NCBI GenBank assembly: GCA_036172245.1 | Contig: JAYWIR010000001.1 | Coordinates: forward strand, 11,966,001 to 12,030,000 | From: Raillietiella orientalis | Lineage: Eukaryota | Reading direction: 5' to 3' | DNA length: 64,000 nt | Shown here: positions 2,560 to 50,800 of the stretch, piece after piece | How the letters are laid out: each line of letters begins with the position of its first letter | How positions within the stretch are numbered: position 1 is the stretch's first letter | The notes under the pieces: generated by a model | Told to the model about the DNA's origin: nothing | The model's database searches: none | The model's input: the letters and a program-made list of their open reading frames with translations, nothing else | Translations under genes and position numbers: made by a program

Positions 2560-3950
2560 CGGGGCGTTTACTCAAAACAAAATTAACATTTACAATTTTT
2601 GTGGTTGGACTGGTGGTCCAGCCACGTCCTTTCTGTAGATACCCTGCCGTGTTACCGGTTCGCGGACCGGTTAGCTTCAGCAAGGCAGCGGAGGGGAGGG
2701 TCCAAACAAAAGGAAAGAGAAACAAAACAAAAATGGAGCAATTTTGGGGGAATCACAAAATCACAACCTGCTGGGGTGGTCCCCTGCATCTTTTGGAGGA
2801 CACCGGCAAGGTCTTTTTTCATGGAGATATGCAGGTGGGGCCATCTGGTCGCTATCCGCAGAAAGCGAAGAGCGAAGTGGATGGCGTTCCTATCGTTGGC
2901 CCGTCGGCTGGCGTCGTTCCACGCCGCCACGATCCCACGGAGGCAGCACAGTGCCGCTAGGGAGGCGGCCGGTGTGAGACGTTGTTGCGCAGGAAGAGGA
3001 GCTGTACAACGTCTCTGAAGATGCCACAGGGGGTTTCAGGGGTCTAGACAAAGCGTCCCCAAAGGCGCCGGAGGGCAGCAGAGTCCACTAGGAGGTGCGG
3101 GAGAGATTCCCGCTCCACGCACCTTCGGATCCACCTCTCGCCCCCGTGACCAATGATGGGAGCGGATGTTGCACGGGAGACCCCAGTGCAACAGCATCGA
3201 CGCCGACTCCCGCCACTTTAAGGGAAGAATGCGGGTGTTCGTGAGCACCAAGGGTCGCTGCGGATCTTCCTCCGGAATACCCAGTAGCACGCCCGGGCGC
3301 TAAGGTCCACGAGGTCGAGCATTCGGGGTCACAGAGTCGGGGAACTGGCCTGTCGTCCACTCGCTCAGTCATTTTCTGCTTCCGCGGATTTCCACAGTAA
3401 GCTCCCATCTAGCCTCAAGTCTTCTGCCCATGGGTTCCCTCGAGGAGAGCAGCGCTGCAGCGAGAGAAGTGCTTCCTGCCCACGCCCTTTTTCCCGGATC
3501 CTCCAGGATCTCTCGGAGCTGCATCGGTTGTTGCGCACGAACAGGAGCCGGAGTACCTTTTCCGTGCGTTGCTCCTGGCTCCTCGCCCACGTGAGAACGG
3601 TTTCCTGCAACCAAGCACTACCTGGCGCGAGGAGGAAACCTGGTGCGCGACTTACCCCTTTCGAAAAGGCTTCGCTAGCGCCAGCTCGAAGAACGGCGGA
3701 CAACTCATTTTGCATCTTCCGAACGAGATCGCACATCCACACGGACGGCGGGGAGCCTCATCCGTCGAAAAGCCCTCGCGTGAAACAGTTGCTGCGGTTG
3801 GGCGGTCAAGTGTCGAATGCGCCCTACCGAGGTGGTCAGTGGCGAAGTGGGTGGGAGTCACCTGGAACGTGTGGCGTAAAAAGACGATCCCTTTCCCGGA
3901 GACCTGCAGGCGGGTGCGTGGCGGTGGTGTGACTGAAGGATGCGGGATCG
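2560..3950 (-). mobile_element. L1/Tx1-like retrotransposon 3' portion, copy A (decayed ORF2 C-terminus plus 3' UTR)
   Basis: Minus frames give LPLKWRESASMLLHWGLPCN and MAAWNDASRRANDRNAIHFALRF, homologous to copies at 13.0-14.9, 16.2-16.8 and 17.8-19.0 kb. The 13.0-14.9 kb copy carries an RT domain. Confidence 0.75.
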
Positions 3951-6040
3951 CCCTCTTTCTGCCCGGAACGTGGCTGGCCACTCTCGTGGCCAAACCAACT
4001 TCATGGAAAGCTTCGTTCCATTGTTATGTCTCGGGGATCAATCATCCTGGCTGGGGTCCTTTGGAGACGCTTCGGGAGTCGACCACAGGAGACCACCTGC
4101 TAACGAGGAAGCCTTGGGAAATTCCAGAGGGGAAACGATTCGAAAGTTCCACCTTTCTATTGTCCAGGTGCATTGCTGATTGTGTCGGTCGAATTGCAAA
4201 AAATCAAACGGATCAACAGGGCGAAGAGTCGCGTAGAATCCTGGATGAGCTGGCAAGCAGCCAGCTCTGCCTTTCCAGAGAGGTCTCTGTCAGAGGAGGG
4301 GCAGGGTTGCCAAATGAGGAAAAAGAAAAAATATACGCCTGTCTTTGTGTGGCGGGAGGAGATCAAGGGAGCACCGGGGTCACATCGGTGTTCCTCCGAG
4401 GTCTTCTGCATCCCGTGACGAGTGCTGGGGCGAGCTCCATCTTCAAATCCACAAGCTGGGATCATCTCGCTGCACACCCTCAGGGAAACCGCCGCTCCCA
4501 TCTCGTTGCGTCCTATTCCGGTCGAGCTTCGTGCCGGGAATTCCTCGTCGTGGGCAGACGCAAAGAGCACGTTCCAGAGAAACGACGTCTGGCATTCGCG
4601 CGTTCCCCGTTATCCGACAAACAAGACCTCCCTTCCTCGAAAGGAAGGACTTCCCTTCTTCCTCCCGCGCACCGCAGTCCGCTGAAACGGCCCGCCTCGT
4701 ATTCCTCCTCCTCACGCGCACGTCACGTGAGTGCTCAGCAAGGCTGCTGGATCGGCACACCTTTCAGGCAGAGGTCTCCACATTTGCAAAGAGAACGAGA
4801 CCTTCGTCCACAGTGAAGCCAAATCCCCGTGAGTGGACCACCACGTGCCTCCCCCCTCGTGGATTCCGAATCTTCGAAGGTTCTCCCTAGGTACCACGCC
4901 CGTATCTGTTCTGTCGAAGAATTCTCTTTTTTCTCTTTGTGTCTGCGCGTTCCTTGCACCTCACCGCGTTCATGAGAAATGCACCTGGAGGAGGACTTCA
5001 GCATCTTTTCGTGGAAACGTGGACTCAGGAGAGCCCCATGAGAACTGAAGGTCTCCTCACAGAAAGAATATCCGAAGAGGCCCCGGGGACACATTTTAGA
5101 GCTCTTGTGCTCATGCTCTCATTTCTGCTTGTCCTACGGTCAAACAGCACTGGTCATCGGATAACAGATACAGGAGGGTGCTTCAGGGAGCGACGAAGCG
5201 TACTGGGGGCTGCCTCACCGAGAAAATGGTGCCATGACGAACGTTTAAGGATCACCAACCGGTGCTCCTGTTGGCAGCTGAGATACAGACAGACTCGAAA
5301 AGAGCTCCAGCTTGCGGAAGTCGCCAAGCATCACATGTCGCGCTGCACGAGGGGTGCTTGAGATCGGACGGCAGAGCTCTGAACACCACAGACGAAGAAC
5401 GCCCTGCTTCTGTTCCACCGCACGGAAGCTGCCGAATGGCCGGCCCTCTCGCTCGGCATCCTCTCCCCAGAGATTCTGAAACAAAGAAGTGGGCGCCCTG
5501 GCGTGCTTGCGAATCGATCGTCTGTTCCACGAAGGAAGAGGGAGGGCGGTTCGTCTGCTCGAATCCGATCCGAAAGGAGGAGGGCCAACGGTATGCTCTC
5601 ACGAATGCGGAAGAGAGGAAAACGGAAGCTGCGACCGGGTGGAGAAAAGCCCTTTTCTTCTTGGTGGTTAGACGACGGAAGATGGGGAGAACAATGCATT
5701 CGACAGGAAGGACGCACGGATTTTCGGTTTTCACGATGAGAGGTCAAGTCAGTCGGCGAACGCGAGGAGACGGAACAGCGGCGAACCTCACTGGATGTCC
5801 TCGCTAACCTGTGCAACTCTTCCAAGGCCACGTTTCGATTTCCTTCTGTTGAACGAATCTGAGTTTTTGAGCGCGTCCATCCTCTCATAACCGCGGGTCC
5901 TTCGTCTCTTGCGACGTTTCCTGAGCCATCCATTCGAAAGTGAACCGCAGGACAGGACGCAGCGATCCCGTGTGGTTGCCTCCCCCCTTGCTGCCGCAGA
6001 GCTGTCTGCCCGCCTCTCAGCAAGGGAGAGATATCAGACG

Positions 6041-7436
6041 ACCCTGTTGACGGTAGAGCCTGCGGCTAGACAAAGAGTTTTTCCGGGACACATCATCGAC
6101 CCCGCACCCTTTCGGGAGAGACGAAGGCACGTTTCGCTTTCGAACCCCTTGACCTAGGGGTGCACGGGAGCGCCTAACGGCCGATCACGAAGACGGCAGC
6201 TGTCAGTCCTGCGGGCACCGAGAAGTGGCAATAAGAACCGGCCAGGAAAATCGACCTTTCGTGCGGAGGAAAGCGCTCGGAGCGGCAACGGGAACGATCA
6301 GGCGCAAGGCGGACCGATCCCACGTTCCAGAGAGTAGAAAGCTGCACCCTGGAGTCGTTGGAGTCACCCGAAGATAAATCGCTTTTTAGTTGTCGCTCGT
6401 CGTTCTGTTTGCTTTGTTCCTCTCAAGAAAGAAAGAAAAACAGGTCCATTCATCATCTTTTCTACCACTCCAGCCTCCACGCGTATTAAGTCATTTGCTC
6501 AGCCAAAGATTTACGGTGACAGGTGTTGCCACTCTTACGGCATTGCCTCCCATGAACGCCGCGATTTCGAGATTCGGATGGAGGCGCTGCGAGCATTTTG
6601 TGTGCGCAGCACGGCGACGAGCGACTGCTCTTCCTGGAGCACACTTGACAGCTCCTGGTCGGAGAACAGGTGCAGGCGCCTGTGCCGCGGAATGTCGCAG
6701 GAGTCTGGATGCTCGTGGGAGGCTTCGAAAGGTGGCTTCTCTCGAGGGCGGCCCGCGCGCCACTCGCGCCACTTGAAAGTCGCGCGATCAGGGTCTCCCG
6801 TTGGCGTCCCTGAGCGCGTATAGGCTGACTGGAAAAAGACGCGACGGAGGGGTCCGAGAGGAGTTGCCGATGTGTGTCGTTCAAGGAGTACTGGGTGTGG
6901 TCAGTGAAGGAGATTCCGGGAAGGAGCTGGTGCGGCTTATGCAGTGGGATGCTGTTTTTCTCGGTTCGCTCCTGCGAAGGCTTCTGTGTGTCCCGTAGCG
7001 TGTTGCTAGGCGGAATCTCTGGAGAGGGAATGCCGAGCGAGAGGGTCGGCAATTGGGCCCTGCCGCAGTCCAAAACCAGGTGCGGGATCGATTCGGTCGT
7101 CTCGCAACTGGTACGGCTCGTGCATGAAGCTGCCTCGGAAACGAGGTGGTTGTTCTGGAAACCCCAGTGCAGAAATAGCAGCACTTTGTGTTTGCAACAT
7201 AGCGAGGACACGGAAGTGGGGCGTCCACTTCCGTGTCGCCCGTCTTCCAGCCGCACAGGAGTTCGGCGGCTCCTGCGATTGCCCAACCGTTGATCGGTCT
7301 TCAGCGCTCCCGTGCACCTCTAGGTCACGGAGTTCGAAAGCGAAACGTCCCTCCGTCTCTTCCGAAAGGGTGCGGAGCCGATGATCCGTCCCGGAAAAAC
7401 TCTTTGTCTAGCCTAAGGCAGTACCGCCAACAGGGG
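6041..7436. repeat. Diverged ~146-bp inverted repeat pair (6041-6187 and 7291-7436)
   Basis: GGCTAGACAAAGAGTTTTTCCGGGAC...CCGCACCCTTTCGG...CGTTTCGCTTTCGAAC...TGACCTAG.GGTGCACGGGAGCGC on plus at 6041-6187 recurs as the reverse complement at 7291-7436, about 80% identical by eye. Confidence 0.85.
6900..7240 (-). mobile_element. L1-like ORF2 C-terminal CCHC (zf-RVT-like) fragment
   Basis: VLLFLHWGFQNN...CTSRTSCETTESIPHLVLDC matches the LLHWG...CxxC...ES..HLL.DC motif of the other copies. Confidence 0.6.
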
Positions 7437-9693
7437 TTTGCCGGTGCTTGCACGGGACAACCGGGCATTGATGCCATCCTTGACACCTGTTCGCTGGTCG
7501 CCGGCCGAAGGAGTACGGAGACCACCAGCGTGGGCTTTGCCAATTCCCTGGATCATCTAGGATGCGTGAGCAGAATGCCCGAAACAGGGAGGGATCGCTA
7601 CAGGGGACACTCGTTTCCAGGTCGGCTTCTAAAAGGCTCCCAATCTCCATGCGGTCTCTCCGCAGGGTTTGTTGCGAGGAGGACTGCTGAGGAGAAGGAA
7701 GATTTTAGAGAAAGAAAAAGATGGCGCCGACTGCGCTGCGCTGCTGATATTCCGTCTTTTTGTGTGCGTGTCTCCCAGGCAACCAGCGTGCGGATGTGTC
7801 GCGTCATGCGAGCGAATCTCGTGGTGATTCGAGGGGTGATGGGTCGCATACCGGATGGCCAGAGTGACGACGTCCATGCCCTTGCTTGCCCGAGTTCCAC
7901 GGAAGGGACGTCGAGGATTCGAGCGTCTCACGCAGCGCACGCGTAAGCGGAGGACGTCCAGCAGTTTGGGTGCAACCGTTCCTGAGTTTCCAGCTTCCAT
8001 CGCAAGCGCAGACTCCTCGGAATCCACCCTCGCCTCTTGCGGCTCCCTCTTTTCCCTGTCTTCCACGGGAGAATCTTTCCCTGGTTGGTTGCGGACTGCG
8101 GATACGTCTTCCTCTGCGCTGCTTGCAGGTTTCCCAGCAGGCGTGTTGCCGCGAAGCCTTGTCCTTGCACCGGGGGTTTCCTGTGCAACCAGCGCCGACA
8201 CTTCGCTTCCATGAGCTGGGCAGTTGCGTGCTCGGGGTGCTCCAGGTGCGGAACGATTGATTCGATGCCGAACGTCTTGATGGGCTGCGGCGGCCACCAA
8301 GAACTGTGACGGAGGCTGTCTTCAACAGTCCTGCACCCCGAGGACGCCGTCAAGGACCTGCTGCGGCGATTCTTCTCGCGAGGAGGACTCTTTGCTGGAG
8401 CGGCGATGTCGACGGTGGACGGCTGCATCCCGCCAGGCGTTGGACACTCGGGAGGGGATGGGAGATCAGATGCCGCCTGCAGGAGGACCGTCTTCATCTG
8501 GAGGAGGAAGTCGTACCGGAAATGGGAGGGACCGGGCGCCGATGATGAGCAAGAAGGAACAGTTCCTTCCAAGGACCCACTGTCCCCATGATCTCTTCAT
8601 TTCTTTCTTTGCCTCTTCCCCTTCCCTTCTCGTTTGGCAACCGCCCCTAGTGTTGATGAAGTCCCCTCGCGGACGTCTCCTCGCTGCTTTTGTCTCGGGA
8701 GTTGCGTTCTCGGTGACCTCGTTTGCCTTCGATTTTACTTGTTTCCCGAAGGAACGCCCGGAGTGACCACGTGATAAACGAAATCTTTGAGAGGCTTCGC
8801 CGTGCTCCTGGAGTTGTCTGGAAGGACAGTACAGCTGCTTTGTCGACGGGTGGCAGTTTGAGGTTTGAGCCGCTGTTCCCAGCCGTGCGGAAATGTTCTG
8901 AAGGAGTCGATTTCTTTTCGTGGGGAGAAACAGCTCTGTAATGTGTGACATGCAGATGGTGGAATGCTCGGTCACGACGAGTCGTTTATTTAATAAATAA
9001 ACCACAAGTCGGAGGGGAATAGCGTCCCCCGAATACAAGAGATGCCAGAAAAGAAGAAGAAAAAAGAGCTTTGTGGATGACCACCGGCGTGCAGGCAAGC
9101 CAGTGCTGATTACCAGACCTCGAATTGTTGCAGTTCCATTTCTTTTACGGAATTCGTCGTATTGGCATGCTTGCCCCCCTACCCCCCATCCCTAACGATT
9201 CTAGGAGGGCCTCCCTTGGCAGCCTAGGCACTCTGCCGCTGTTCTTTAGAGGCAACCTCTTTTGGTGGTTGTCCTTTGGCCGCTACTGCACACGCCGAAC
9301 TCTGATAACCACACGGAGGCTTCCGGATGCCTCTCGGCCAATCTTTCGAAGCGCGTAGTTGGTTTCAATGTTCTCCCTTACGCTGGCTCCAGGCTGCCAA
9401 AAGCTGCTTGCGCTTTCCTTGCATTGCTCTGCGCGTGGCGCTTACCCCAAAGCCATTAAAAAGTAATATTCCGAATTTTACTGCAAAAAGACGGCTGCCG
9501 TAATCGATGTTACATAACAACTTTTTTTTCTTCCTTCGACGGAGACCGTGCAGTTGCGTCGGAGATAAAAGGGCAGCCTCCGGGGGTCCTCTGCACCATT
9601 CCTTGTCTCTCAGACTGAAGGAAACGGTTTGTAAGAGACCTCCGCCCTCCAGGATCGAGAAAATCCCCCAATCGGGAAGCCTGTGGTTGACAG

Positions 9694-12133
9694 ATGCCGA
9701 CTTCGAGGACGTTTCTGTTCCCCCTGCTCGCAGCGGGACTTCTTTGCCTTCACCGGTAGGATGTGCGGGGCGATCCCGCAGATTCCCTAATTTGTTTGCT
9801 CTGTGCAGAACTGAAGCGGACCCCAACGATGCTGGAAAATTGTCCGGGCAAGAGAAGCTGAGTCTGAGTTTGAACGGCAAGGTAGGTCACTGCTCCAGGC
9901 CTTCCTCACGCTATGGATTCAGGGCTTCTACGTGATGGATGTGACCGCGGGCACTCCGCCCCAGACCCTGCAGCTGACCCTGGACACTCACGAAAACGCG
10001 ACGATTGTGGCGGACTCGCAATGCAAGCAGGAACTCTGCCGTGGGTTTTCCCGGACCGCGGCTCCTTGCCTTCTCGAACGTTCCTCTCTCTACCAGGGGC
10101 CGTTCAGAGATTCAGCAGCTTCCGTTCAACCAGCTGGAGTGGAAAGACGAGAATTTCGAGGAATCTTTTTTCAACGGTGGCAGTAGTCGATCAGGCGTAC
10201 GACCTTGCGGTAGGTGAATCTTTTACGAAAGGTGCGACGCAGTGCTGCCATCTTCTTGGAATTCGCGCACCGCCTCCAGGATGAACCAAAGAACAAATCT
10301 TCTAACATCAGCTAACCCAAAGGACCCTCCGTGGCATTCACGAAAGTGTATCGCAGCGGTTGCTATGCCGCCGAGGACGTTTGCCGCGTTTCTGTCGAGA
10401 TGGTCCTTCCGTTTGCGCGATGTCCCACAAGCCAACCTTAGCTCGCGTTCTCGCCGCTTCCCTCCTTGTTTCCAGAAAGAACGTCACGAAGGTCTTTCGA
10501 AAAGCTTTGTCTTCCTCCTTTCCTACTTCGGTCTGACCGAATGCAAGGAGCCATTCGAGAACGCTTTTCTTTCGCCTTGAGGCTTGCAAAATGAAAGCAA
10601 AGGGAGGGGGACGAGGACAACACAGGCTGCGAGCTGCAAATTTCCAGACGCCCAAACAAGAGGGAAGGCTCATCTATATCGGACCCAACAACCGAACGAT
10701 GCAGAGCATCTTTTCGCTGAGACGCTCTAGCTCTTTCTTGATACACGTTGTGCACCTCGGCAGCTACTCCATATCGAGAACGAACCTGGAAGACTTTGCC
10801 AAACACGTGAGACTGGGCGCATTTCGGATGAGGTTCTCTTTCGACGGGTAAGGCGATGGACGGTTGGGCACATGCGCACCCCTTTGGGCGCTCAGGAAAT
10901 CCGGAGGGACTCTGGACGTGGACTTCGACAAGATGACGGGCAGCGGAAGCGCCCCCGAGAACGGCATTGACATCGGGCTGGAGACGGGACCCGATTACGC
11001 CATCGAGTTGTACAGGTAGGAGCGCTTCCCAGGTTTTGCCTCCCCCTCCCTGCAACACACTGCGAGGGTGAGCTCTGGGCCTCGTTCTCTAAATATTTCC
11101 GAGAGCTCCCTCCAGCATGCGAGGTTTCTGCTTCCTTCGCTTTCGATCCAAAAAGCGCGGAGGCCTATCTCCGGCAGCGTAAGCAGAATCCAAACCTCCG
11201 GCGGTCGAAACGCTTGAAGATGCTTTCTGAGTCGCCTTTGGTAGGCTGCGGATCCTCCAGAGCGGCAACGAAATTTTGAAGGAGAGGAATCTGTACGCAC
11301 CCTTGCGTATGAACAAATTCCTCAGCACCGCTCCTAAGTCTTTCACCGAGAGGCTGGCGAAGCTGGTTGACGCTTCTCCCAGTGGGGGATTTTACAAGGT
11401 CGGTTTCCTCACGAGCAATAGAGGACAAGCGAAGGACGTCTTTCCAGTTCAAGTGCAACGCGAATTCCGGGTACAAGCCCACCGTAGAAATCTCGTTCAG
11501 CCTGATGAAAAGCTTCACCCTTCATTATGACGACTACCACTTCAAGGTAGGTGAACAGCCTGACCCTCCGCTTGCGACCTCCTCGTGGGAAAATTTCAAT
11601 GCCGAATCGCTTAGGCTGTGGCGGGATCTTTCCGAAGAACCCCTCGTGTCTCACGCTTCTTCCATCGCCTTGCGCTGCAGCCATGGTAGCGTACTCAACT
11701 GCCATCTTGAGAGGTTGAGAAGCAGAGCATGGATGACTAGGCTGGTCTCATTTCTTCGTAAATGTCGCTTTCGAGTTCACCTCGTCCTCCGAACTTCACG
11801 TGTCTCTCAGCTGAGCTTCTCAAGGTCGCATTTTCCTCGGGGCGAACCGAAGCTATGGGAGCTTTTGCATCTTCATGCTCGCCTTCAGTCTCCGTCTTCT
11901 TGGGTCAAATCTGCCAGAAACCCCTGTCCCTTCCAAGAATTCTTCTGCCTGCAGAGAGTGCCGGTCACGTTCGTATCTTTTTGCAGATAAACAACGATTG
12001 CTACCTCATATTCGTCTCCTCATCCATGAATACTCTCGAGCTGTCTACGAGGATGTTGGAAAAAGTGATCACAACAATTGACGTCTTGAAAGGAGAGATA
12101 CGTTTCGAGATCAAGGAGCAAACAAAGGCATGA
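9694..12133 (+). CDS. Secreted pepsin-family (peptidase A1 fold) protein, predicted catalytically inactive; 9 exons, 361 aa
   Basis: Exons 9694-9755, 9809-9881, 9923-10040, 10097-10209, 10648-10847, 10896-11015, 11245-11398, 11448-11546, 11987-12133. All introns GT-AG, total 1086 nt open. Signal peptide MPTSRTFLFPLLAAGLLCLHRTEA. Segments GFYVMDVTAGTPPQTLQLTLDT, CKQELC, FSSFRSTSW, SGGTL, FKC...KPTVEISF...FTLHYDDY and NDCYL...VITTIDVLKGEIRF are collinear with pepsin/BACE. Confidence 0.85.
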
Positions 12134-12680
12134 GAAGGATGGGAAATCGAGAGGAAACTTTACGTGGCGGTTGGACCGGGGTATCCATGGGAATTGCTGG
12201 CGTGAAGTTTTCCGTTTCTGAAGATTTGAGGTTGCAACGTGTGCTAAAAGCTTTCTTTGAGTAGTGTGACCTTGGCAACAGTTTCCTTCTCCTACTAATT
12301 CCGACTGAAAATAAACCTATAATTCTGAGGCACACAAGAGTCATCATTTCGAACTTGAGCCCTGTGGAGCTACAGCTGACGTGCCACTTAGTCGGTGACG
12401 ATTAGGGCTTCATCGGTCGACTTTGAGAAAGAGACTTTCCTTGGTAAACGGCGGTCTCTGAAAGTCACGTGGAGAATCAGAACAGTCACTTACGTTTGGT
12501 ACTCAGACGTGGAGGTCATCTTGCTGGTATGGCTTGCCTAGGTTTTCGAAAAACGCTGTCGTTGCTTATCTCGTGGACAACAAGGCTGAGCATCAGCTGA
12601 GAGCATCCATTGGGAGTGCTCTCTTCCTTAAGAACGACGAGCGTTGCAGTTTTGCAATGCCCTCCCACTGCTCTTGCAAA

Positions 12681-13029: not shown

Positions 13030-14910
13030 ATTTCAATCAATCTCACAATTTGTGGTAGGACACGTGGTCCTACCACGCTCAATTTGTCCGTGGACCTGCC
13101 GGGTCACTGGCACGCAGACCGGCGAGGTTCGCCTCGGCAGCGGAGGGCAGGGAGAAACAAAAGAAAAAAAAAATAAATAAAAGTCCTTTGGAGGGCCGGT
13201 AAGGGATCGCAGTCCTCTGGAGTCCTCTGCATCCTTCCTGGAATGCCGGCTGGATCGGTCCTGATTGTACCCAGGTGGGGTCATCTTGCTGTTATCCGCA
13301 GAAAGCGAAGTGCATGCTGGACGGCGTCTCTTTCGTTTCGCTCCTGCTTCAGCGACGCTCCAGATCGTCACAATCCCGCGGATGCAGCAAAGTGCTGCTA
13401 GGGATGCAGCCAGAGTGAGGGTGTCGCTCAGGAAGAGGCGCTTTACAACATATCTGGAATTGCCATCCGGGGTTTCAAGGGTCGTGGTCAAGCGTCCCCA
13501 AAGGTGCAGGAGGGCAGCAGAGGAGGTGCGGGAAGGATTCCCGCTCCACGCACCTTGCACAGTTCGGGTCCACCCCTCCCCCGTGTCCAGTGATGCCAGC
13601 GGGTGTTGCACGGGAGGTCCCAGTGCAGCAGCATCAACGCTGACTCCTGCTATTCCAAGAGAAGAGTGCTGCTGCCTTCGAACTCTGAGGGTCACTTGAG
13701 GTCTTGGCTGGGAATCTCGAGCGGCTCGCTCCAGCGTTGCAGTCCTCGTGAAAGGGCGTTCGGGGTCGCAGCGTCCGCTAGCTGCCCGCCCACTCATGAA
13801 CTTCCTCCTTCCTGCGATCTCACAGGAAACTAACCACTCCGACGGTTGGCTGCCGCCAAGTGCCTTCGTCAGAAAAGACATCACTGCAGCGAGGAGGTCC
13901 GCTCCGATCACGCGCTCATTCTGGAACTCTCCAGAATCTTCCTCAGTGAGCAGCGCGCGTGGCTGCCGAGTCGCAGGCAGTTTCCACACTTATGAGATGG
14001 GCTCGTTTACCTTCGCCCGCGTGCCAACTGTTTCCTCTAGATAGGCGCTACAGTTGGCGGGGCAACAGGCCATTCAGCCGTTCTCATTCGCCAATATGGC
14101 CATGAGTCCAAAGAGGTGACCGCAGCTTCTCAACTTTTGACCGGGGCACGGAAGGTAGGAGGCGAGTCCTTCCATGAAGAGCAGGCGTTTAAGAACGTAC
14201 CAGGGAGAGCTCCAGTACGTCACTTTGATGGCCAACATTCTCCATCGCGGCTGGATTTCTGTCCCCTCCAGCGTGAGGAGGCCGAGGTCCGCTGTCTCCC
14301 ACAGAGCACACGAGTCCATCGGCGAGATTCGGGACCCCACAAGACTATTCTCAATAGGGACCGTGTCCACTTTTTTTCCTCTTTGGGGACGGAGGAAACA
14401 AAAAGTAGGGGGCGGAGGAGGGGAGCCGCGAACGCGTTCCAAACAGCGGTCCGTCCCGGCAAGTAGAACTCGCCATCCAAGAACGAAACGATCGCCAACC
14501 CTACCTTCTAAAGACGGTGAGAATAGACTTCTGCTGGGGCAGAAGTCCCACAACGGAACGCCAAGGTTCTTGATGTACCCGTCCGTGGGGATCCCCAGGA
14601 GGATCCAGTCCGGCCGTCCAGACCACGCCGAGCCGACATAAACGATGGACGACTTCGCCCTGTTCACCACCAGGCCCGTCTCGCGGCGTAGCAACTCGAA
14701 GAAGTCCTCGAGCGCACTCGCCGGGGTGGACCCGGGAAGCAGCAGCAGAAGATCGTCTGCATAGGCCGACACGGCAGGCGTGCCTGGACACGAGCTCGGC
14801 AGGGTTGCCAAAGTCTCCTTGTATGCTCTCAGCACCAACTCGAAGTGGATGCTGAAGAGCAAGGGGCTCAGACTGCCTCCCTGCCGGATGCCGCGGAGGA
14901 CGGGCACGCG
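13030..14910 (-). mobile_element. 5'-truncated L1/Tx1-like non-LTR retrotransposon, copy C (RT C-terminal half, CCHC region, 3' UTR; decayed)
   Basis: ORF 14074-14907: RGIRQGGSLSPLLF...SAYADDLLL...TGLVVNRAKS...IKNLGV, the conserved C-terminal RT motifs. Downstream frames are broken but homologous to copies A, D and E. Confidence 0.9.
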
Positions 14911-15009
14911 GTCTCCGAAAAACTAGTGGTTTCCCCGCTTGTTTAGGCACCCCGGTGTTTACTTTAGGATGAAAACAGTACTTGCTGCTGCTTTAACACT
15001 GGGAGTTCC

Positions 15010-16184: not shown

Positions 16185-16810
16185 GACTTACGTCACTAGG
16201 GTTGCTAGGGTCGCAGCAAAGCGTTCCCATAGGGGCCGGAGGGCAACACAATCTACAAGCAGGTATAGGAAGGATTCCCGTTCCCTACACCTGCTACAGT
16301 TCGGGCTTGTGCCCCTCAAGTCCAAGGATGTCGGTGGGCGTTGCATTGGAGGCCCCCAATGTAGCAGTAGTATCGCTGACTCCTGCCAACTGAGTGGGAG
16401 GGTGAGAGTGTTCCGGAGTACTGAGAGCCACTCGAGGTCTTCCAGGGAAATTCCCAACAGCTCATTCCAGAGCAAAAGTCCTTTAGGTGGGACACTCGGG
16501 ATCACAGCGTCAGTCAGCTGTCCCGTGGTTCGCGCACTTAACGTTTTTTCTTCGACATCCCATCTCGCAGACGACCTTCCATGTTTCCAACTTCTGAAGA
16601 TCTGCTCCCTGAAGGAGGGCAGCTCTACGGCGAGAGAGGTTCGCTCTGCCCACGCCCTTCTTCCGAGATGAACGAAGATTTCCTGGATCGAGTACTTGCT
16701 GAAGGATAAACAGCGCAGGCGCTGCGATAACATAGGACTCGGCTCCCGGATCTTCGCTCACGTGCGAACGGTTTCCTGCAGTCAGGCACTACCGTTCACG
16801 TGGCAGCAGA
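16185..16810 (-). mobile_element. L1/Tx1-like ORF2 C-terminal fragment, copy D
   Basis: ORF 16188-16733: SAILLLHWG...NCSRCRERESFLYLLVDCVALRPLWERF (zf-RVT-like region). Confidence 0.8.
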
Positions 16811-17769: not shown

Positions 17770-19020
17770 CATTTATTTATATAAAAATAAACTGATAAGT
17801 CAGCGACAGAGAGCTTAGTTCTGCCACGTTACAATTGTATCGATGGCAACTTGCCTAGAAACGGAACGCAGGCCTGCGAGGTTCCCCTGGTCAGAAGAGG
17901 AGAGGGCTGGTGAACGAACAGACATAAAAATAAAACAAAAAAATGTATACAAAAAATTTGGAGGTTCGGGATGGGATCACTGCCTGCTGGGGGAGCGTCC
18001 TCTGCATCCTTTCCAGAATGCCTGCAGGTTTCTGTTTCACACTTCCCAGATGGGATAACATAGGACGCCATCCTCATGAAGAGGACAGCAAAATTGATGG
18101 CATTCCTGTCGTTCTGGTCTCCTCTTGCGCTGTTCCATGCAGCCATGATCCCGCGGCACAGTGCTGTTAGGGATGCGACCGGCGTGAGGGATTCGCGCAG
18201 GAAGATGCACTTTAAAAACGCCCCTGGGGTTGTTGCTTTCGGGAATCCTCAGGAACGCAGCAAAGCGTTCCCACAGGGAGCGGAAGGCAACGCAATCCAT
18301 GAGCAGGTGCAGTAGAGACTCTCTCCTTCGCCGCACCTGCCGCAGTTGCTATCACCTCTTCCCCCGGGTCCAATGATGTCGGCGGGCATTGCACGGGAGG
18401 TCCCAATGCAATAGAAGGATCGCCGACAACTGCCACTTAAGGGAGTGGGTTGCACTGTTTCGACACACTGGGGGCCACTTTACCACCTCCGGAGGAGTTC
18501 TTAGCAGCCCTCCCCAGCATAGCAGCCCTTTTAAAGGGACACTCGTGGTAGCAGCGTCCGCTAGCTCCCGCATATTTAGATGTTTTCTTCTATTTTCGAT
18601 AGTGCACGTCACCTCCTATCTTATCGATGGTCGCTCGCTGTCCCTTGTTCCTTTCAGGGAGAGCAGCACTAAGGCAAGGGGATGAACGACGCCCCAAGCA
18701 GATTCCTGTTGTCCAGGATCTCCCTCAACAGCATACGAGCGCATCTGCTGGTGTGCAGGCAGATGAACTCCGCTCCCTCGCTCGTGCCGTTGATTTTTGC
18801 GCCACGCCGAAACGGACTCCTGCAGGCAGGCAGTCTCGTTCTCGGGAAGGCAGAAGATCCAGGGTTTCCATCGGACCAGGACAACCATTTGTCGGAGCTG
18901 GGAGCCAAGATGTATCCGACTTCGCTCGGTGGCCACAACGACCGTAGTCAGTCCCTCGCAACCGGTCGCTCGCTAGGCAACGATTGGTGCCGGAGTGCAC
19001 CAAGGTGTGGCCCGCAGCTT
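17770..19020 (-). mobile_element. L1/Tx1-like 3' portion, copy E
   Basis: SAILLLHWDLPCN, NCGRC..RESLLHLLMDCVAFRSLWERF and MAAWNSARGDQNDRNAINFAVLF, followed by a 3' UTR homologous to copies A and C. Confidence 0.8.
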
Positions 19021-25606: not shown

Positions 25607-26956
25607 TCAATGTCGCGTCACCCGATTCATGCTAGAAAAGCGAGGCGGAGGAGCCAGAATTTTCGGGATACAGGGAATCACAAGAGCAGCCTCTTGAATT
25701 TGCTTCTGCAGTTGAGAATCCAAATTCCACCAATGAGCACAGCTCATGACATGATGAATGTTTTTAACTAGATGACCTTTTACAGCTTCTTTCAGGTTCC
25801 TTAGGAAAGCCAACGTCCTCTTTTTACATAATAAAATGTAATGATTCATTTTCAGTGAACGTACCGGATCATCATGTGAGGCATGGCACACCAAATGATC
25901 CAGTGCAGCATAAGACTGGCAAGACTGTCGTGGGGAAAGCTTCTTGCAAATAGAGGTTAAGGTCTGTTCCATAGAATATACGTGCCAATCTTGACACTCC
26001 AGCAATCTCCGGAAACTGATCCCACAAATCTGCTTTATAACCCAGTTCTTTTGTACCTCTGACTTTGCAGAGAATCTGCAAAATTTTCTCCCAGGAAATG
26101 ATCAACTTGCAAAGCAAGTTCATTTATTAGTGTATGCACTCTCTCAGCCCACTTGACACATGGGAGAGTAGTAGATATGCGTTCACAATTCAGTAGCACA
26201 ACCAGGACTGATTCTGAATTCTAACAAGAACTATTGATGCCCACCATAATGAAAGAAAGGAGCTTACGAGTCTTTCTCCTGCTACCTGTAGACAACTATT
26301 CTGCAATTCCTGCCTTAACTGAGCAAAATTCCTAGTTGGCCATACTTTGTCCATGTGGCGTACTGACCAGTGTAAACATGCAGCAGATAGATCTTCTATT
26401 TCATAGGAGCTCGCCAATTCCCAACATGACAATGCTCCCTTAATACAATGCTTGCAAGGCTGAAAGGAATGAATAGAGGAAGCAGAAATCACATGTTGCT
26501 ACTTCATGGAATTGATGACAGTATTGATTCTTGAGATGTTTTGCCAACACCTGGTTCAGAGTAGCCACTTTTAGGTAATCAAAAACCATGGCGCACTCTC
26601 TGATATTTACATCCGATGGTAAATTAGCAGCAGTATTATCATAAAGATGTTTCAAGATGAACTCGCACAAGGATGCTGAACAACTGCAAAAAAAAAAAAA
26701 AAAAAGGTGCAAATTGAATTCCATATCATGCTAGAACACAATACAGTGGCAAGAAAATTGGAATGAAAATTAATAACCTGGTAAGGGAAATAGTCTGAAT
26801 AGTTTGCTCAGATGGGCTGTCTTGTAGAAGAGCACCAAAGAAAGGTGATCTGGAACATAACACTTTACTGTGCGCTTTGAAGATCTTCCCTCCTGCTTCT
26901 ATATGAACATCTTCCAAAGTCTGATCATGATGCTGAAATTCCAAATCCAAATCCAT
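25607..26956 (-). CDS. BTB/POZ-domain protein, BTBD8-like (~360-375 aa as modelled)
   Basis: Exons 26956-26778, 26683-26503, 26459-26268, 26220-26057, 26015-25607 (probable extra 45-nt intron 25820-25864). BTB motif DVHIEAGGKIFKAHSKVLCSRSPFF. YCHQFHEPCKHCIKG...CLHW..RH..KVWPTRNFAQL resembles BTBD8-family proteins. Gene ends uncertain. Confidence 0.8.
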
Positions 26957-28479
26957 GGGAACTGTGCTTCACATGGGAAGATACTAGTGCTCTGATGGAA
27001 TGTCAATGAAAAATATAAATGCAATCACAAGATAAGCTGCAATATTTCTATGTACCAGCTTCTTTTGAGTGTGCATTTCAGTTTACCTAAACATGAATCT
27101 CAAACTACGGATGTGAATCATTGGCATTTTTTTTTTTTAAAAAAAAAAAACAGCTTCATTAACATAGTAGAAATGCCAACAATTTTTCAAGGCTGCTCCA
27201 TTTTGCGTTCCCCCTTGATTCGGAAAACTGATGCACCCAAAATAAAACTTCCCTTCTGTGAAGTTTACTCAAGAAACCAATGCAGCGAACGGATGTCCTG
27301 AATGCATCCTACTCTTCAGCGCTGAGAACCACACTTTTTCCATAAACCATCACACTTGGGAATGCATAACCTCCACGATTTACAGTACTCGTCTTTTCCA
27401 ACGATTTTAATCGTCGCTATTCAGGATCATCCCTACGCAGATCGATGAACTCGGCAGCAAACTGCTTTCGGTCCAGTTGAGGTCCTACAAGGGTATCTCC
27501 ACTGTACCTAAAACCTCACCGTGATCATGGGATTTTATCAGTTTGATTTTCAGCACTAACACATTACTGGGCTGTCTTACAAAATGAGTAACAAAAGGAA
27601 AGAATTAATAGTCGTCCCTAAAGGGAAATTAGATAGTACTTCCAGGATAGCATTGTACATGTGTATCTGCTTTTGATATCATAATATATCGACTAATCTC
27701 GGAATGTAACTCGAAACAGCATGTCTTGAATAATACGATATTGCTATGTGATTATTTTTTGATCTATAAAGTCCATTTCATTCTGCTTTCCCTTTTAAAG
27801 CCATGCAGTCCATTTAGAAAACTGTTCTTTCACTTTGGAAGTTCGTCTCTGAGGGGTACATGAACCCTTTATTTTTGTTTTTTCTTTGATCCCAATTGTT
27901 AGGCTCAGAAAAATGGGACTTGCTTGGACGAGTCAGAGCCTGGACCGGGGATGGGAACGATCGAAGAAAATCACCGCCATTGTATCTTCACTATGTGTGT
28001 GTGTCGCATCTGTGGGACTGCACTATTTTAAACTGGCAAATTTCGAGTTCCGCGTTAGGTAAAATGTGGATGCTTGTTTATTACTGGAAAGCTAAATAGA
28101 CAAACGGTTCTTCACCGGAACATGGTATCTTGTCTTGTTGCTTCCCAGCTTATGCCGCTCTTATCTTTGCCAATCCAACCAATCGAAAACCGAGCAGCCG
28201 AAGATTTTCTCATAAGAGTGTTTAAAAATGACGATACTCCTTAGAAAGTACGGAGTTTTACAGCAAACGTTCTGTTCTTTTTATTGTTCCCATCCTCTCT
28301 AGTAATACATACTTCGTGAACAGTGCCGTTGTTTAATCTCAGAAATCTTAGTCTGATTTTATTCTTGCAAGGCCTGATATCTGAAAAATGAAGACTTTCT
28401 TGGATTAGTCGGATCGTTCCACGAAAATTTAAGAAAGCATCCTTTTCGGTCCCTTTTGTTGATAAGAATATCCGCTCTC

Positions 28480-30710: not shown

Positions 30711-31217
30711 GCGGGGGGCCGCTTTCCAGCCAGGAGGTGCGAAGATTCCGCCTGCAAGCAAAGTCGGAGCAGGGGGGGGGGAGAAACCTTCCCGGAAAAG
30801 TCTTTGGCAAACGCACTCCATTCTTAAGATGTTAGCACACCTGAGGTGTTTCCTTCACCCTTCCTTTCTCTTTCCCGTGTTTACAAGGGAGAATCGGATT
30901 GGATGCTTTTCCCATTCTCTGCTTCGCTAGGTACTTGCGATCAATCGGCCTCGGGGCTTCAGGAGGAGGCGCAGCGCGTCGGGATGCCGGAACGGGTTTG
31001 TTGACCACTCGAGGGGCGCGCATAGCATGCGCGAAATCGGAATGCCCCCTTGAGCACGCGGGGGGACGTTCGCTTCCGTCGGTTGCTAGGATCGCGGGGA
31101 TTGTTCGGAACATCCCAAAATCTCGAGCTTCTTGGGTTCGCTTCTCCTCCCCCCGCCTCAGTCCCAGGTGCCCACTTTCCGACTGCCTCTTGACTCCCTT
31201 CGTTTTTTGCTGACATC

Positions 31218-33071
31218 ATGAGAAGGCACATCCAGGTTTTCAAAGCTCCCAAGCAGGAGCAGGTGATCAGGCCTGTCCTGCGAATGCTCCAAAGGGGACC
31301 GGCGGATGGCAAGGCCGGTCCGAAGCAGGGCAGAGGGACCTGCGAGGAAGTCGCGTGCGGCGGTGGCAGGTCGCCAAGAAGCGTGGGCTCCGTCCGCACG
31401 AGAAGACACGGAAGGAAATGCTGCGCTCCCCCTTTCTTCCTGGGTTCGCGGACCACTTCTGCGTACTTGGAAGAGCTGGAAGCTCTCTCCTCCGCCCTTG
31501 ATCCTTCCGACTGCGCAGACCCTGCGGGGAAGCTGAAGATCTGCTACCGCAAGCGGAAGCCCGCAGCGAATATGAGCAGAGAAAGGTCGCCTGCATCCTC
31601 CCCGCGCCGACAGATGAGCTGCCCCCTTCCTTCGTCGCTCGACCACAAGCCGCCGACGCACACGGCCATCATCCAGATCCAAGGGAGGAGAGGTGCTTCT
31701 TGCAAGATGGCCGACCGACAGAGCGTCTCCATAGACCTCGACAGCCCCAGCAAATCCGCGAGCAGCGCAGAAAGCGTGGCGCTGAGCCGGAGGTCGGCGC
31801 GCCCGAGCTGCGCCGGCAGGAAATGCCCTACACTGCAAGAATGTCTCCAGAGCAAAGAAGAGAACCACAAAAGCGAGGGCAAGAAATGCAAGAAGGGGAG
31901 GCAGAGCTCGGGTCTGGACTTCCAAAGGTCTTCGAATCGAGTCGACCTTTGCGGACCCAGCGCCTCCGCCGCGCCAAGGTCCCCGCAAACCCTGGGGAGC
32001 CTTTTCTACTGTTGCGGCAGTGACCCGCCGCTGGGGACGGCGGAAAGAGAGGACGCCAAGGTCCCCAAGAGCTTGGGCAGCATTGCCGACATGTGCACAA
32101 CCCCGACCACCTCGGACGTGTCTTCCGAACGCCCTCTGGAGATCCGCATCAGCCGGGGAGCGAATCGCCCGCCTCAAGGAGGGCGAATGAGGCGCGAGAA
32201 GTCACTCTGCGAGAGTTGCTCCTTAGGCATTTCCGAAGGAGAGGTGGCTCCCCTTGCCGTTGCGGCGGACAGAGCCAGCAAGGCGCACAGAGGGACTCGG
32301 CGGGTCTACAAACGGCGACTCCTCTGCCCCCCTTACCGAGGACTCCTCCCCACCATAGAGGGCGAGGTGCTGCTCCTGTCGGCTGGAGGAGCCGTCGGTA
32401 AAGGGGACGGAGGTTGCTGCTGCTGCCTGGCGAAAGCTCCAGAGTGCCCCATGTGCGGCTACTCCCCGTGGGATCTGAGAGTGAAGCAACGCCCCTTCCG
32501 CTACCAGAATCGGAGCTGCAAGAAGAGATGCCTTCACTACCTCGGAGTCCCCGAAGAGCTGGCCATCTGCGTGCAGAAAGAGCGCCCCGGAACTGCGTCG
32601 CAGCTCTCCGAGTACGCTTACGAGGTCCCGGACTTCGGGATCCCCCCTGGCCGTACGGGGAAGAAGGTGGCGCACCGGAAAGGAGCGGGCAGCAGGAGCG
32701 CAGAGCCCGTCGACCAGAGCATCTGGCTGCTGCGCGAGGAGGAACAGCCTCTCTTCGTGCCACCCCGGCGCGCGCCCTTCAAGAGGACAGGATCAAACCG
32801 CGAGAGGAGCGTCACCCCTGGCTGCGCGCGCACGTCGCCCCACCAGATCCGTGGCGGCCACAGGGGCCGGAAGAAGAGCTCCAGGGTGCTGCCCCCCGTC
32901 ATCTACGAGGCGAACGAGCCGGACACGCCCACGGATTTCTCCTCCGACGAGGGCTCTTTGTACCTGAGCTCCCAGTACCTCGCCTCAGCACCGGCGAAGG
33001 CAGCAGGCTGCGCCAACCTGGGGACCCTGAGGCTCGTTGACGTCAGCAGCGGTAACTATGATTTTTTCTAG
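31218..33071 (+). CDS. Hypothetical intronless basic, Ser/Arg/Cys-rich protein (617 aa)
   Basis: Longest ORF in the window, ATG to TAG, G/C-biased third codon positions. A decayed paralogous copy lies just downstream. No known domain recognised. Confidence 0.6.
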   Translation: MRRHIQVFKAPKQEQVIRPVLRMLQRGPADGKAGPKQGRGTCEEVACGGGRSPRSVGSVRTRRHGRKCCAPPFFLGSRTTSAYLEELEALSSALDPSDCADPAGKLKICYRKRKPAANMSRERSPASSPRRQMSCPLPSSLDHKPPTHTAIIQIQGRRGASCKMADRQSVSIDLDSPSKSASSAESVALSRRSARPSCAGRKCPTLQECLQSKEENHKSEGKKCKKGRQSSGLDFQRSSNRVDLCGPSASAAPRSPQTLGSLFYCCGSDPPLGTAEREDAKVPKSLGSIADMCTTPTTSDVSSERPLEIRISRGANRPPQGGRMRREKSLCESCSLGISEGEVAPLAVAADRASKAHRGTRRVYKRRLLCPPYRGLLPTIEGEVLLLSAGGAVGKGDGGCCCCLAKAPECPMCGYSPWDLRVKQRPFRYQNRSCKKRCLHYLGVPEELAICVQKERPGTASQLSEYAYEVPDFGIPPGRTGKKVAHRKGAGSRSAEPVDQSIWLLREEEQPLFVPPRRAPFKRTGSNRERSVTPGCARTSPHQIRGGHRGRKKSSRVLPPVIYEANEPDTPTDFSSDEGSLYLSSQYLASAPAKAAGCANLGTLRLVDVSSGNYDFF

Positions 33072-33894: not shown

Positions 33895-34130
33895 GCATCC
33901 CAACCGGAGCCGAAGCTGCAAGAAGAGGCGTCTCCACTACCTCGGAGGCGCCGAAGAGCTGACCATACACGTGCAAGCAGAGCGCCCGGGAACCGCGTCG
34001 TAGCTCTCCAAGCGCTCTCATTAAGCCCCAGGCTTGGGGATCTCCCAGTCGCTGCACGGGACAGAAGGCCGCATCCCGGAAAGGAGCAGGCCGCAGGAGA
34101 GCGCAGGGCCAGTCGGCCGTGGGGGAGGGG
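33895..34130 (+). pseudogene. Decayed partial duplicate of the 617-aa ORF (matches ~32500-32720)
   Basis: AGCTGCAAGAAGAGGCGTCTCCACTACCTCGGAGGCGCCGAAGAGCTGACCAT...GAGCGCCCGGGAACCGCGTCG aligns with AGCTGCAAGAAGAGATGCCTTCACTACCTCGGAGTCCCCGAAGAGCTGGCCAT... The copy has in-frame stops. Confidence 0.8.
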
Positions 34131-47500: not shown

Positions 47501-47832
47501 TTGCATAAATTGCACTTCATTAATAAGGTTTTGCATTTTTGTTACAGATCAAATGCCATACGTGAGCCAGTTATGTCAAACAATGTGCATTAAAATGAAA
47601 AAAAAAAAAAAATAAAAGTCAATTGAGTGTAAGCCACAAAACCTGAAAGGGTAATCGTTTTGATTAGTTTCATTAAGTAGCAGATGATTTTTATGGTCCT
47701 AAATCAGTCATTTCCACAGTAAGCATGTTGCTGATTACTGTCAAAATAAAAAGGTGCTTGAGCCTATTTAGAATAATATGCAGTCTTTCAAATATTCATC
47801 AACAGAGCTTTATCCACGCACATTGAAAGATT

Positions 47833-50800
47833 ATGTCACAAAATGGTAACTCTTCGATTATTCCCAATGGTGTTGAACCATCTGTGACCTCACAAGATAC
47901 CTTGAATGTAACAAACTATGCATATGTTTATTCTGCCCCCAATGTCCCCCACTCTTTTCCACAGTCAATGTATAATTACAGTGCACTTCCCCCATCAACA
48001 ATTTTTCAGATCCCTTATTCTCAGTCAAACCTTCTGTGTTATCAACCACCTATTGTAATTACCCAGGATAACCCAGCATACACTTCTTATGCAAGTCCTG
48101 TTCCCTCTAGCAATGGAACTGCATATTGTTCACAGAGTATGATGCCATATGTTAATTCTCCCACATATGTGAACTATAATTTTACTCAAGGTTCCCAAGT
48201 TGCAAATAGTGTTGGATCACCAGGCTTTGATAATTTGTATAATACTAATCCTAACTCTTATTCTGTATATCAATTGAATACAAATATGAGGATGTCTGCT
48301 GGAGGACATCCATCTGAATCCATCAGTAGATGTAACAAAAAACATGACGTTGATCAATGCCCATCTGCTCCACCTGTTTCCAGTCAGTACATTGGCAGCA
48401 ATCAGAGACTTGAGGTGTCCCATATAAGCAGTGAATTTGATAACTACTATATGAACATTAAGCCAGAATCTCATAAAGCCAGAAGATGTGATGAATTCAA
48501 AAGATCCCAGGACATGTCTTTGAATAATTTACCATTGTCAAGATCATTAAAATGCATGGAAAATGTATCTGATGTAAAAACAATAGAACCATCTTGTGGT
48601 GCTTATGTAAATTACACGAATCCAGAAGACAGTGATTTCTGTGGTTATGACAAGGAGGCATGCCTCAGGAAGATGGATAACCTTGCTGATGATCATGTTA
48701 ATTCGGGGGATCGGAAATATTCGTTACGTCCTGTAGATAAAAGTGATATATCATGTGTAAGGGTTGAATATGACCATCCTTCACAATATTCCAAAAAAAC
48801 AAAATTAGTTACAACTACAGCTAATAAATCAGGAATGACAGGAAAGCATAAAACAGTTAAAGACTTAAAACGAATTCAGAATAGATATGAGGAAGGATGC
48901 AGTCAATATGATAGTGATTTTGCATCTGGCAGCAGTGATAAGTAATGTGTGGATCATTAATGAGGAAGTATTAACACCCATTTATTAGTTGGGAGAAGCA
49001 GATCATGAATTGGTTGCATCAAACGGAAGAATCCGAGGTAAAAGAATCCTGGATACGAAGCTCACCTGCAGATTTGTATTATATTCGTGATGAAGAGTGA
49101 GTCACTTGAATCAGTGATCAAGTTTTACTTTTGTATTATTATATAGAAATCCAAAAATAATGAGAGCAGCACTGAAGTTAAAAAAGTTATGTGAAAACTT
49201 TACAAATATTTTGTTACAAAGAAGGCAATATCAAAATAATGCAGCCAATGAAGTAAGGTTAAATAATTCTGTGCAGCACAATTCAAATACCAATGGTAAA
49301 TGTGCATTGTTGTGCATGAATCACAAGGGATTTTCTTTCAGATGATCCAATAAAATCAGGTTCGTCTACTATTTGTAACTATACTATCGGAGGAAATTCT
49401 AAAAGTAACAGCAGTAGCACAAGCGATGAAGATGATGGAATCAGTTCAACCATGAAGGAGTTGGAAAGGAAAAAAGCCCATAAAGATAGACTCCATCCAG
49501 AGTTATGGTACAATGATCCAGGACAGGTAAGATCTGTCTGTAGTGACTACACAAGTATACAACAATTTGACTGCATGAGTACAAGTAAAATTTTGCAGTA
49601 GAAGTGTTGATAAAGATGCTCATAAAGATTTATGAGATAAATGCATAGAATTCAATCTTTCAAAAAAATTATCCTGAGAATAAAACCAACATTCAACAGA
49701 GAAAAAGACAGCTGCATTCAAGCATTTTGTGTGAAGACTTTCAACAATAATTTTGAAAATATTTTCATATTGGTTTAAATTTGTATTCATGATTGTTTGT
49801 TTGCTTCACGTTTGATCTTTTCACATAGTTAGAAAAATTACATTATAATTTGATTCGCATTTGGATTCTTGGTGTCATGAAGTTAAAAAAAATCAGCTTT
49901 CCTAATTATGATGCTTCACTGTTTCATTTACACAATTCCTTTGCTGCCAGTTTGGTTGGCTGCTCGATATTCAAGTTTTTTCCAAAACTTCAGCAGATGC
50001 TGGACATTTAATGTTTTCATGTTTTCATATTCTAATAATCAATGTAAAGAGCATAAATGTCCTGTTATAAAATTTAGAATTAAATCAATGTTGATCTCTT
50101 TTTGCCATTCCTTCCTTCTCATTCTCTGCAAATCATGTGATTTATTTCAGCAGCAGAAGATCAGTTGGTTATGTGAACCTTGTTCTATGATTCTGTGTTG
50201 TTGATTTTGCCTTGATTTTCGACTTTTTTGTGTTTTATGTTTAACTAATCTGCACTGTTTGGTTGATGTTTTATTTCAATTCTTGGAGATTAAAAAAATC
50301 ACAAACAAGAATTCTTGTGTGTAATTTTTTCAATACTGAAACTGATAGCTTAATGTTCATAAGCCTTGAGTCAAAAATGGTCAAATAATGTTATTTATAA
50401 GCTAAAAACATTACTTCAGTTGTTAGGTGCACTTCATCTCTGCCAGTCTTAAGTGATAAGCACTAATAGCTGTTATGGTATTAGTACTTTGCATCCATTA
50501 ACATCCTTTAGACATGTGAAATGTAGCACCTTTAAGCCATTGCTTTCCAAACCTTATTTGGTTTAGTGGAAGTAGCAACATGAATTTAGTAATTTATGGG
50601 CTTAATTACCTGATTGCTAAACTGTATAGTGTTAGAAAAAAAATTTCCTTTTTTCCGATGTTCTTAATGATCGTGGACTGCATGCAAGGAATACTGAAAT
50701 GTTCAATTTTAGATGAATGATGGTCCAGTATGTCGATGTAGTCTTAAAGCTCGTAAATCCGGAATTCGACATGGTTTTTATTCTGGAGAAAAACATCTAC

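Follow-up and report, generated by a model that had tools for sequence, protein, structure and literature searches.

In the 64,000-nucleotide (nt) window analysed here (contig JAYWIR010000001.1, positions 11,966,001 to 12,030,000), nine exons at positions 9694-12133 of the forward strand make up what we consider, with a probability of about 0.68, to be a real and intact animal gene of the pepsin/cathepsin D family (MEROPS A1), encoding a secreted, two-lobed protein that is not a protease and retaining the ancestral nine-exon layout. An initial annotation of this DNA had proposed an intact gene for a pepsin-fold protein; that the gene is intact and belongs to the pepsin family was borne out by comparison with an A1 profile and by exon structure and intron phases like those of the genes for pregnancy-associated glycoproteins (PAGs). 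The gene combines A1 homology, the loss of catalytic residues and an intact structure, and is thus probably that of an A1 pseudoprotease.

Gene model and coding signature

Joining the exon coordinates (Table 1) reproduced the proposed frame of 1086 nt, consisting of 361 amino acids free of stops and a TGA stop codon, and all eight introns begin with GT and end with AG, with phases of 2, 0, 1, 0, 2, 2, 0 and 0. The introns measure 53, 41, 56, 438, 48, 229, 49 and 440 nt, so that the range of 41-56 nt given in the initial annotation describes five of them, the remaining three being 229-440 nt long. No stop-to-stop frame over the gene exceeds 123 amino acids, and the gene is, as had been noted, missed by a list of open reading frames (ORFs).

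The GC content of the spliced frame is 0.47, 0.42 and 0.70 at the first, second and third codon positions (GC1, GC2 and GC3), and GC3 is higher than the mean of the other two positions in each of the nine exons, whereas no single position stands out to a similar degree in the introns. This pattern is a coding signature, which alone cannot tell a live gene from a young pseudogene.

At 9564-9616, a TATA-like string, GATAAAAG, precedes the ATG by about 125 nt, and an initiator-like TCAGAC comes about 45 nt downstream of this string. The donor sites of the gene read GTAGG, with G rather than A at position +4, in five of eight cases (9755-11550), and none of five donors of the Drosha-type gene in the same window reads so.

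Exon structure compared with pepsin-family genes

The strongest evidence for the model, and one that is independent of sequence similarity, is the match of its structure to that of pepsin-family genes. Mammalian aspartic peptidase genes are described as having nine exons as a rule (PMC2682831), and nine are also given for the cathepsin D gene of Bombyx (PMC1629011). Exon lengths were compared with those listed for beaver PAG-L, bovine PAG1, bovine PAG2 and pig PAG2 in Table 3 of PMC5561160 (see Table 1 here). All differences in length between the model and these four genes are multiples of three, and the intron phases calculated from the cumulative sums of exon lengths are the same in all five. 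The phase columns in Table 2 of the same source agree with these values for introns B, C, E, F and H, and contradict themselves for introns A, D and G. The likeness extends to exon 3, the third codon of which encodes Tyr and which ends one base past a Cys codon in the model and in beaver PAG-L alike (Table 2, PMC5561160). The catalytic Asp residues of the PAG genes are placed in exons 3 and 7 (PMC5561160), and the corresponding motif sites of the model lie in the same two exons.

The sole large difference concerns exon 2, where the model falls 78-93 nt short of the PAG genes; the propeptide therefore appears to be missing, in accordance with the earlier claim that there is essentially no prosegment. 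About 22 residues separate the end of the hydrophobic core of the leader from the first A1 strand.

The structural match supports all eight junctions, including four that the profile described below could not test, and it speaks against an origin outside the animals, in fungi or elsewhere; transfer from a fungus was considered and rejected, as the exon structure is of the animal pepsin type. Metagenomic A1 genes were also inspected for equivalents of the exon 3 borders, and AG/GT was found at these places in none of 67 loci that were partial or contained introns and in none of 51 full ORFs; therefore, they lend no independent support to the borders. More generally, conserved intron phases and exon lengths can validate a gene model without RNA data, a genome or homologues.

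Homology to the A1 family

A home-made A1 profile was built from 51 metagenomic ORFs of at least 330 amino acids with two D[TS]G motifs, taken from 120 motif-scan loci of metagenome contigs, a sample that is biased in being cathepsin D-like. Against this profile, the joined protein scored 25.0 bits (E 5.8e-10 for one target), compared with 4.5 bits for the best of 2000 shuffles and no score for the reversed sequence, and hhalign returned a probability of 92.3% (E 5.4e-7). The score comes from two collinear matches, one of residues 48-99 to profile positions 14-66 that crosses junction 3, by which the first 15 residues of exon 4 are aligned as well, and one of residues 257-353 to positions 224-327 that crosses junctions 7 and 8. 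The N- and C-terminal thirds of the protein are thus homologous to A1 proteases. Exon 7 also did well against its sub-profile, its score being equalled or exceeded in 3 of 1000 shuffles.

Taken one at a time, the exons contribute very unequally. A six-frame scan of 9300-12500 with the profile gave exon 3 as the sole clear single-piece match, with nothing in the three long introns. In the PDB, exon 3 had 91 matches at E≤10; the 60 listed were all A1 proteases, matched at their residues ~15-48, and the best among them was saccharopepsin (E 0.016). Exons 4, 5, 6, 8 and 9 searched singly had 0 matches in the PDB at E≤10, and exon 7 had four weak and unrelated ones, none of them A1 (E 0.48-1.4). 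The search with the Pfam Asp profile that had been recommended as a check, which was made with contiguous pieces of the gene, gave a single match below the curated cut-off: the ORF of exon 3 matched with 17.9 bits (E 0.0022), and the other six of the seven pieces did not match.

The profile also allowed the junctions to be compared with their alternatives, by scoring every in-frame, stop-free GT-AG alternative. The junctions of the model were the best outright for intron 3 (first of 15), intron 7 (first of 16) and intron 8 (first of 44), and joint first among four for intron 2, with one tie at 25.0 bits; for introns 1, 4, 5 and 6, the profile score is uninformative. That exon 3 yields a single-exon match and the other exons none could suggest a chance construct, in which splice sites were chosen to keep a frame open around a short A1-like stretch. 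We find this scarcely credible, because the exon lengths and eight phases match those of pepsin-family genes, a second collinear profile match spans exons 7-9, the joined protein scores far above any of its shuffles, and coding periodicity is present.

Loss of the catalytic apparatus

Active A1 enzymes have D-[TS]-G in each lobe (Asp32 and Asp215), a propeptide and a flap with Tyr75-Gly76. In the spliced protein, the N-lobe has D-T-H and the C-lobe R-M-N at the catalytic sites, exon 2 is short, and no Tyr-Gly occurs. The first motif reads DTHENAT, as had been stated, in which Asn70 begins an N-A-T sequon; a second sequon is at Asn137, and the product is probably N-glycosylated.

At the place of the second motif, the octapeptide APLRMNKF was recovered as annotated. 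Its register follows from the profile alignment, which is free of gaps and begins at residue 257, three positions past the octapeptide; because this alignment puts Pro259 on a conserved Pro, Arg250-Met251-Asn252 are placed on D-[TS]-G. The loss of the motif is independent of the register, since the 48 residues between 222 and 271 include no Asp, whatever the alignment. We also looked for an alternative exon that would restore the motif, and found only two D[TS]G strings in the three forward frames of 9600-12300, neither of which has an A1 context or falls within an exon in the frame of the model, so that the pseudoprotease reading stands.

The dipeptide Tyr-Gly is absent from the entire spliced protein. 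By exon position, the flap falls in exon 4, which lacks it; however, the local alignment is statistically unsupported there and Phe109 may sit at the position of Tyr75, and thus the earlier statement that the flap Tyr-Gly is missing holds for the string and less securely for the site. An alternative alignment by hhalign, in which the flap lies in exon 5 and the region of the second motif is deleted, was rejected, since its middle part is no better than shuffles (16/150) and since the conserved exon borders contradict it, favouring a collinear alignment without large insertions or deletions.

Other features of secreted pepsin-like proteins have been kept. The Cys residues are at positions 18, 79, 84, 283 and 318, and Cys79/84 (C-x4-C) and Cys283/318 align with the four consensus Cys of the A1 profile; the two pairs equivalent to pepsin 45-50 and 249-282 are indeed retained. 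At the N-terminus, MPTSR, with its basic residue, precedes a hydrophobic core of residues 7-17 (mean Kyte-Doolittle value of 2.38 over 11 residues from residue 7). This segment has the appearance of the signal peptide that had been annotated, and the product would accordingly be a candidate for secretion.

Because the first motif is D-T-H and there is no Asp for the second, the predicted product is incapable of canonical catalysis by two Asp residues. The first motif does retain Asp66 and Thr67, and it might be argued that the protein is still a protease of unconventional arrangement, with Asp66 acting together with another acidic residue or with two N-lobes paired in a dimer. Retroviral-type aspartic proteases are homodimers of this kind, to which each chain contributes one Asp. 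However, the replacement of Gly34 by His, the stretch of residues 222-271 devoid of Asp, the flap region without Tyr-Gly and the lack of a propeptide to hold an active enzyme latent all speak against proteolysis, and we regard this explanation as very improbable.

Functional gene or pseudogene

Several observations weigh against the interpretation of the locus as a functional A1 gene. The Pfam Asp score of exon 3 is below the curated cut-off of 19.9 bits and comes from a single exon. Exons 4, 5 and 6, with ~145 residues, are no better than chance against their sub-profiles (521, 120 and 570 of 1000 shuffles, respectively, score as high), and when the middle residues 100-256 were shuffled, 16 of 150 trials reached or surpassed the global score of the real sequence. 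A search of 1.84 billion representative proteins with exon 5 found 0 homologues, and a word search with the ORF of exon 3 found none among longer proteins at E≤1; in the Atlas, the best match of exon 5 (0.80, DUF4367 clusters) is at chance level. For introns A, D and G, the phases derive solely from exon lengths. The context of the start codon is poor, with C at -3, and the gene is located among old retroelement copies.

Part of this list, namely the decayed retroelement copies around the gene, the weak start context, the lack of detectable relatives in the searches with exons 3 and 5 and the unrecognisable middle third, would also suit an unprocessed pseudogene, i.e., a copy, no longer expressed, of an A1 gene that had diverged beforehand, in which disabling mutations have yet to arise. 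Further, with the freedom that GT-AG splicing allows, an open frame over 2.4 kb of DNA with 54% GC is not improbable alone. On the other hand, the 1086 nt contain not one stop or frameshift, none of the 16 splice dinucleotides is disrupted, the eight ancestral phases are retained, GC3 periodicity is seen in every exon, and neither the leader peptide nor either of the Cys pairs has been lost. We therefore think a pseudogene unlikely, without considering the chance of one negligible.

The alternative that we prefer is a gene that is probably functional rather than decaying. Neutral decay to such a divergence from the A1 family should break the frame and the splice sites, and none is broken; what has been kept despite the divergence is the open frame, the splice dinucleotides, the phases, the leader peptide and the two disulfide pairs. 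Expression of the gene and a bilobed fold that includes the middle third would be expected on this interpretation. The initial annotation also called the product lineage-specific, for which the basis would be the single-exon searches without homologues.

Likeness to known A1 proteins and possible role

Relative to active cathepsin D or pepsin, the model has in common the homology of the N- and C-terminal thirds, two Cys pairs, a domain length of ~316 residues and nine exons, but differs in having D-[TS]-G in neither lobe, no propeptide and no flap Tyr-Gly. Among the A1 proteins regarded as non-enzymes, the PAGs share the layout with nine exons separated by eight introns and the intron phases; many 'modern' PAGs are described as having substitutions in the catalytic centre and as being thought non-enzymes (PMC2682831). 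PAGs are secreted glycoproteins, as is predicted for the product here. However, they retain a propeptide (exon 2 of 151-166 nt vs. 73 nt in the model) and are easily recognised as pepsin relatives, whereas the middle third of the model is unrecognisable; they also occur in placental mammals, while the host here looks arthropod and the model has introns down to 41 nt.

An arthropod counterpart may be Bla g 2 of the German cockroach. In this protein, both catalytic Asp are kept in altered triads, and there are extra disulfides and zinc binding. The model can be set apart from it, by description and not by sequence, in that the second Asp is missing entirely. Bla g 2 is described as an inactive aspartic protease (PMC9541408), and the likeness, again by description only, is that of a secreted A1-family protein of an arthropod. 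The third group to be compared is found in plants, and its Pfam profiles are TAXi_N and TAXi_C. The xylanase or glucanase inhibitors of the TAXI-I/EDGP type are non-catalytic proteins of the A1 fold that bind other proteins. TAXi_N matched the ORF of exon 3 weakly, with 16.3 bits (E 0.012), far short of its cut-off of 30 bits and covering the same A1 strand as the Asp match, and no TAXi_C match was found; the gene structure of the model, in contrast to the plant proteins, is of the animal pepsin type.

Taken together, we hypothesize that the product has a binding role. With the propeptide gone, it would need no activation, and having lost the two-Asp mechanism, it would not hydrolyse; for these two reasons, we propose that it most likely serves to bind a ligand, be it peptide, protein or small molecule, at its surface or within the vestige of the substrate cleft. 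PAGs, Bla g 2 and the TAXI-type proteins of plants offer an analogy for such a role, which could be one of binding or inhibition. Known A1 pseudoproteases act as allergens, pregnancy markers or enzyme inhibitors, which would make a search for the ligand worthwhile, provided that the protein is expressed. The gene adds to this known class, and opens no long-standing question, but it is an extreme case of a 'dead' pepsin fold, which has lost the propeptide, the second Asp and nearly all similarity in the middle third and yet kept its nine-exon phases.

Genomic surroundings

The gene had been described as lying in a graveyard of retrotransposons, flanked by decayed transposable elements (TEs). 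This is true insofar as a reverse transcriptase (RT) fragment is found nearby, together with four to five diverged copies of one repeat (64-91% identity) at ~1.0-3.6, 12.7-14.1, 15.8-16.8, 17.6-18.6 and 19.5-21.6 kb. However, the fragment is the only RT match among the 146 ORFs scanned against Pfam, in which no other TE domain was detected either, and the ORF adjoining the fragment had no significant match to P0123. A paralogue of the pepsin-like gene was also sought, and no copy was found elsewhere in the window.

Table 1. Features of the window, with exon lengths of the pepsin-like gene (model) set against the ranges listed for four PAG genes in Table 3 of PMC5561160.
Feature	Position	Strand	Model length (nt)	PAG length (nt)	Remarks
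Exon 1	9694-9755	+	62	53-59	Start codon and signal-peptide-like MPTSR plus hydrophobic core; ends in phase 2; differs from PAG by 3 or 9 nt, equal phase
Exon 2	9809-9881	+	73	151-166	End of leader and short linker, without propeptide; only large difference
Exon 3	9923-10040	+	118	118	First A1 strand, DTHENAT in place of D-T-G-S-S, Cys79-x4-Cys84 loop; length equal in all four
First catalytic motif, degenerate (DTHENAT)	9983-10003	+			Residues 66-72; Asp66 and Thr67 kept, Gly replaced by His
Exon 4	10097-10209	+	113	119	R-F...S-T-S-W segment, then flap region without Tyr-Gly
Exon 5	10648-10847	+	200	194-200	Very divergent N-lobe/linker segment, N-R-T sequon; length equal to beaver PAG-L and pig PAG2
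Exon 6	10896-11015	+	120	117-123	
Exon 7	11245-11398	+	154	136-148	Site of second catalytic motif
APLRMNKF, at place of A-I-V-D-T-G-T-S	11297-11320	+			Residues 247-254; Arg250 where catalytic Asp expected
Exon 8	11448-11546	+	99	99	Cys283 and subsequent strands; length equal in all four
Exon 9	11987-12133	+	147	147-156	Cys318, C-terminal strands, TGA stop; length equal to beaver PAG-L
AATAAA, possible polyadenylation signal	12310-12315	+			177 nt past stop; weak, with 8 such sites on + strand in first 22 kb
RT fragment, non-LTR (long terminal repeat)-like element	14077-14922	-			Pfam RVT_1, E 5.4e-9; 46% identical to a 619-aa RVT_1 protein
Repeat of 3' region of RT element	~2598-3622, 13049-14052, 16199-16793, 17863-18571				
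BTB-BACK (kelch-like) gene exons	25607-26968	-			BACK, E 0.0005; BTB-like peptide; AT-rich, CpG-depleted island
Drosha-type RNase III gene	~47827-56000	+			First large exon 372 aa; introns ~50-80 nt
RMND1/DUF155-like gene	57287-58548	-			Pfam, E 3.8e-6

The window is split in composition. Part of 1-36000 has 53-64% GC and an observed/expected (o/e) CpG ratio of 0.75-1.05, with GC-rich stretches at 1-22, 23.5-25 and 28.5-35 kb, whereas 40000-64000 has 30-40% GC, a CpG o/e of 0.17-0.71 and an excess of TpG. The block around the pepsin-like gene belongs to the former (GC 53-61%, CpG o/e ~0.9), and GC3 is 0.70 in the pepsin-like gene and the RT fragment vs. 0.28-0.44 in the Drosha, RMND1 and BTB genes. 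A chimeric assembly was considered and rejected, given the AT-rich, CpG-depleted BTB-BACK gene inside the GC-rich half; this island shows that the GC-rich DNA is interleaved with host genes. It is conceivable, if rather improbable, that the pepsin-like gene and its neighbouring retroelements are together a block of foreign composition in an AT-rich, CpG-depleted arthropod genome. The gene would then either have come from another animal along with the elements or be part of a TE-rich, fast-evolving 'effector' compartment, from which secreted binders would originate, for instance factors of saliva, venom or immune evasion. Most likely, the pepsin-like gene has been inherited vertically.

The arthropod character of the host is suggested by one exon of the Drosha-type gene, for which the best 120 matches listed carry only arthropod species names where a name is given, mostly at 75-84% identity and none closer. 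The introns of this host gene are short (Table 1), and those of the pepsin-like gene, where short, are therefore in keeping with the host.

Upstream of the pepsin-like gene, an inverted repeat occupies 6042-6187 and 7291-7435, with arms of 132-146 nt that are 87-89% matched and 1.1 kb apart, and a second inverted pair is at 5431-5476 and 7013-7058; these may be a foldback element or the remnant of a DNA transposon. Elsewhere in the GC-rich half, an open frame of 625 codons runs on the forward strand from 31194 to 33068, with GC3 of 0.75 vs. 0.58 and 0.57 at the first and second positions and no Pfam match. A stretch of 216 nt of this frame is repeated at 33903-34118 with 76% identity, and the frame could be a real GC-rich gene or the ORF of a TE.

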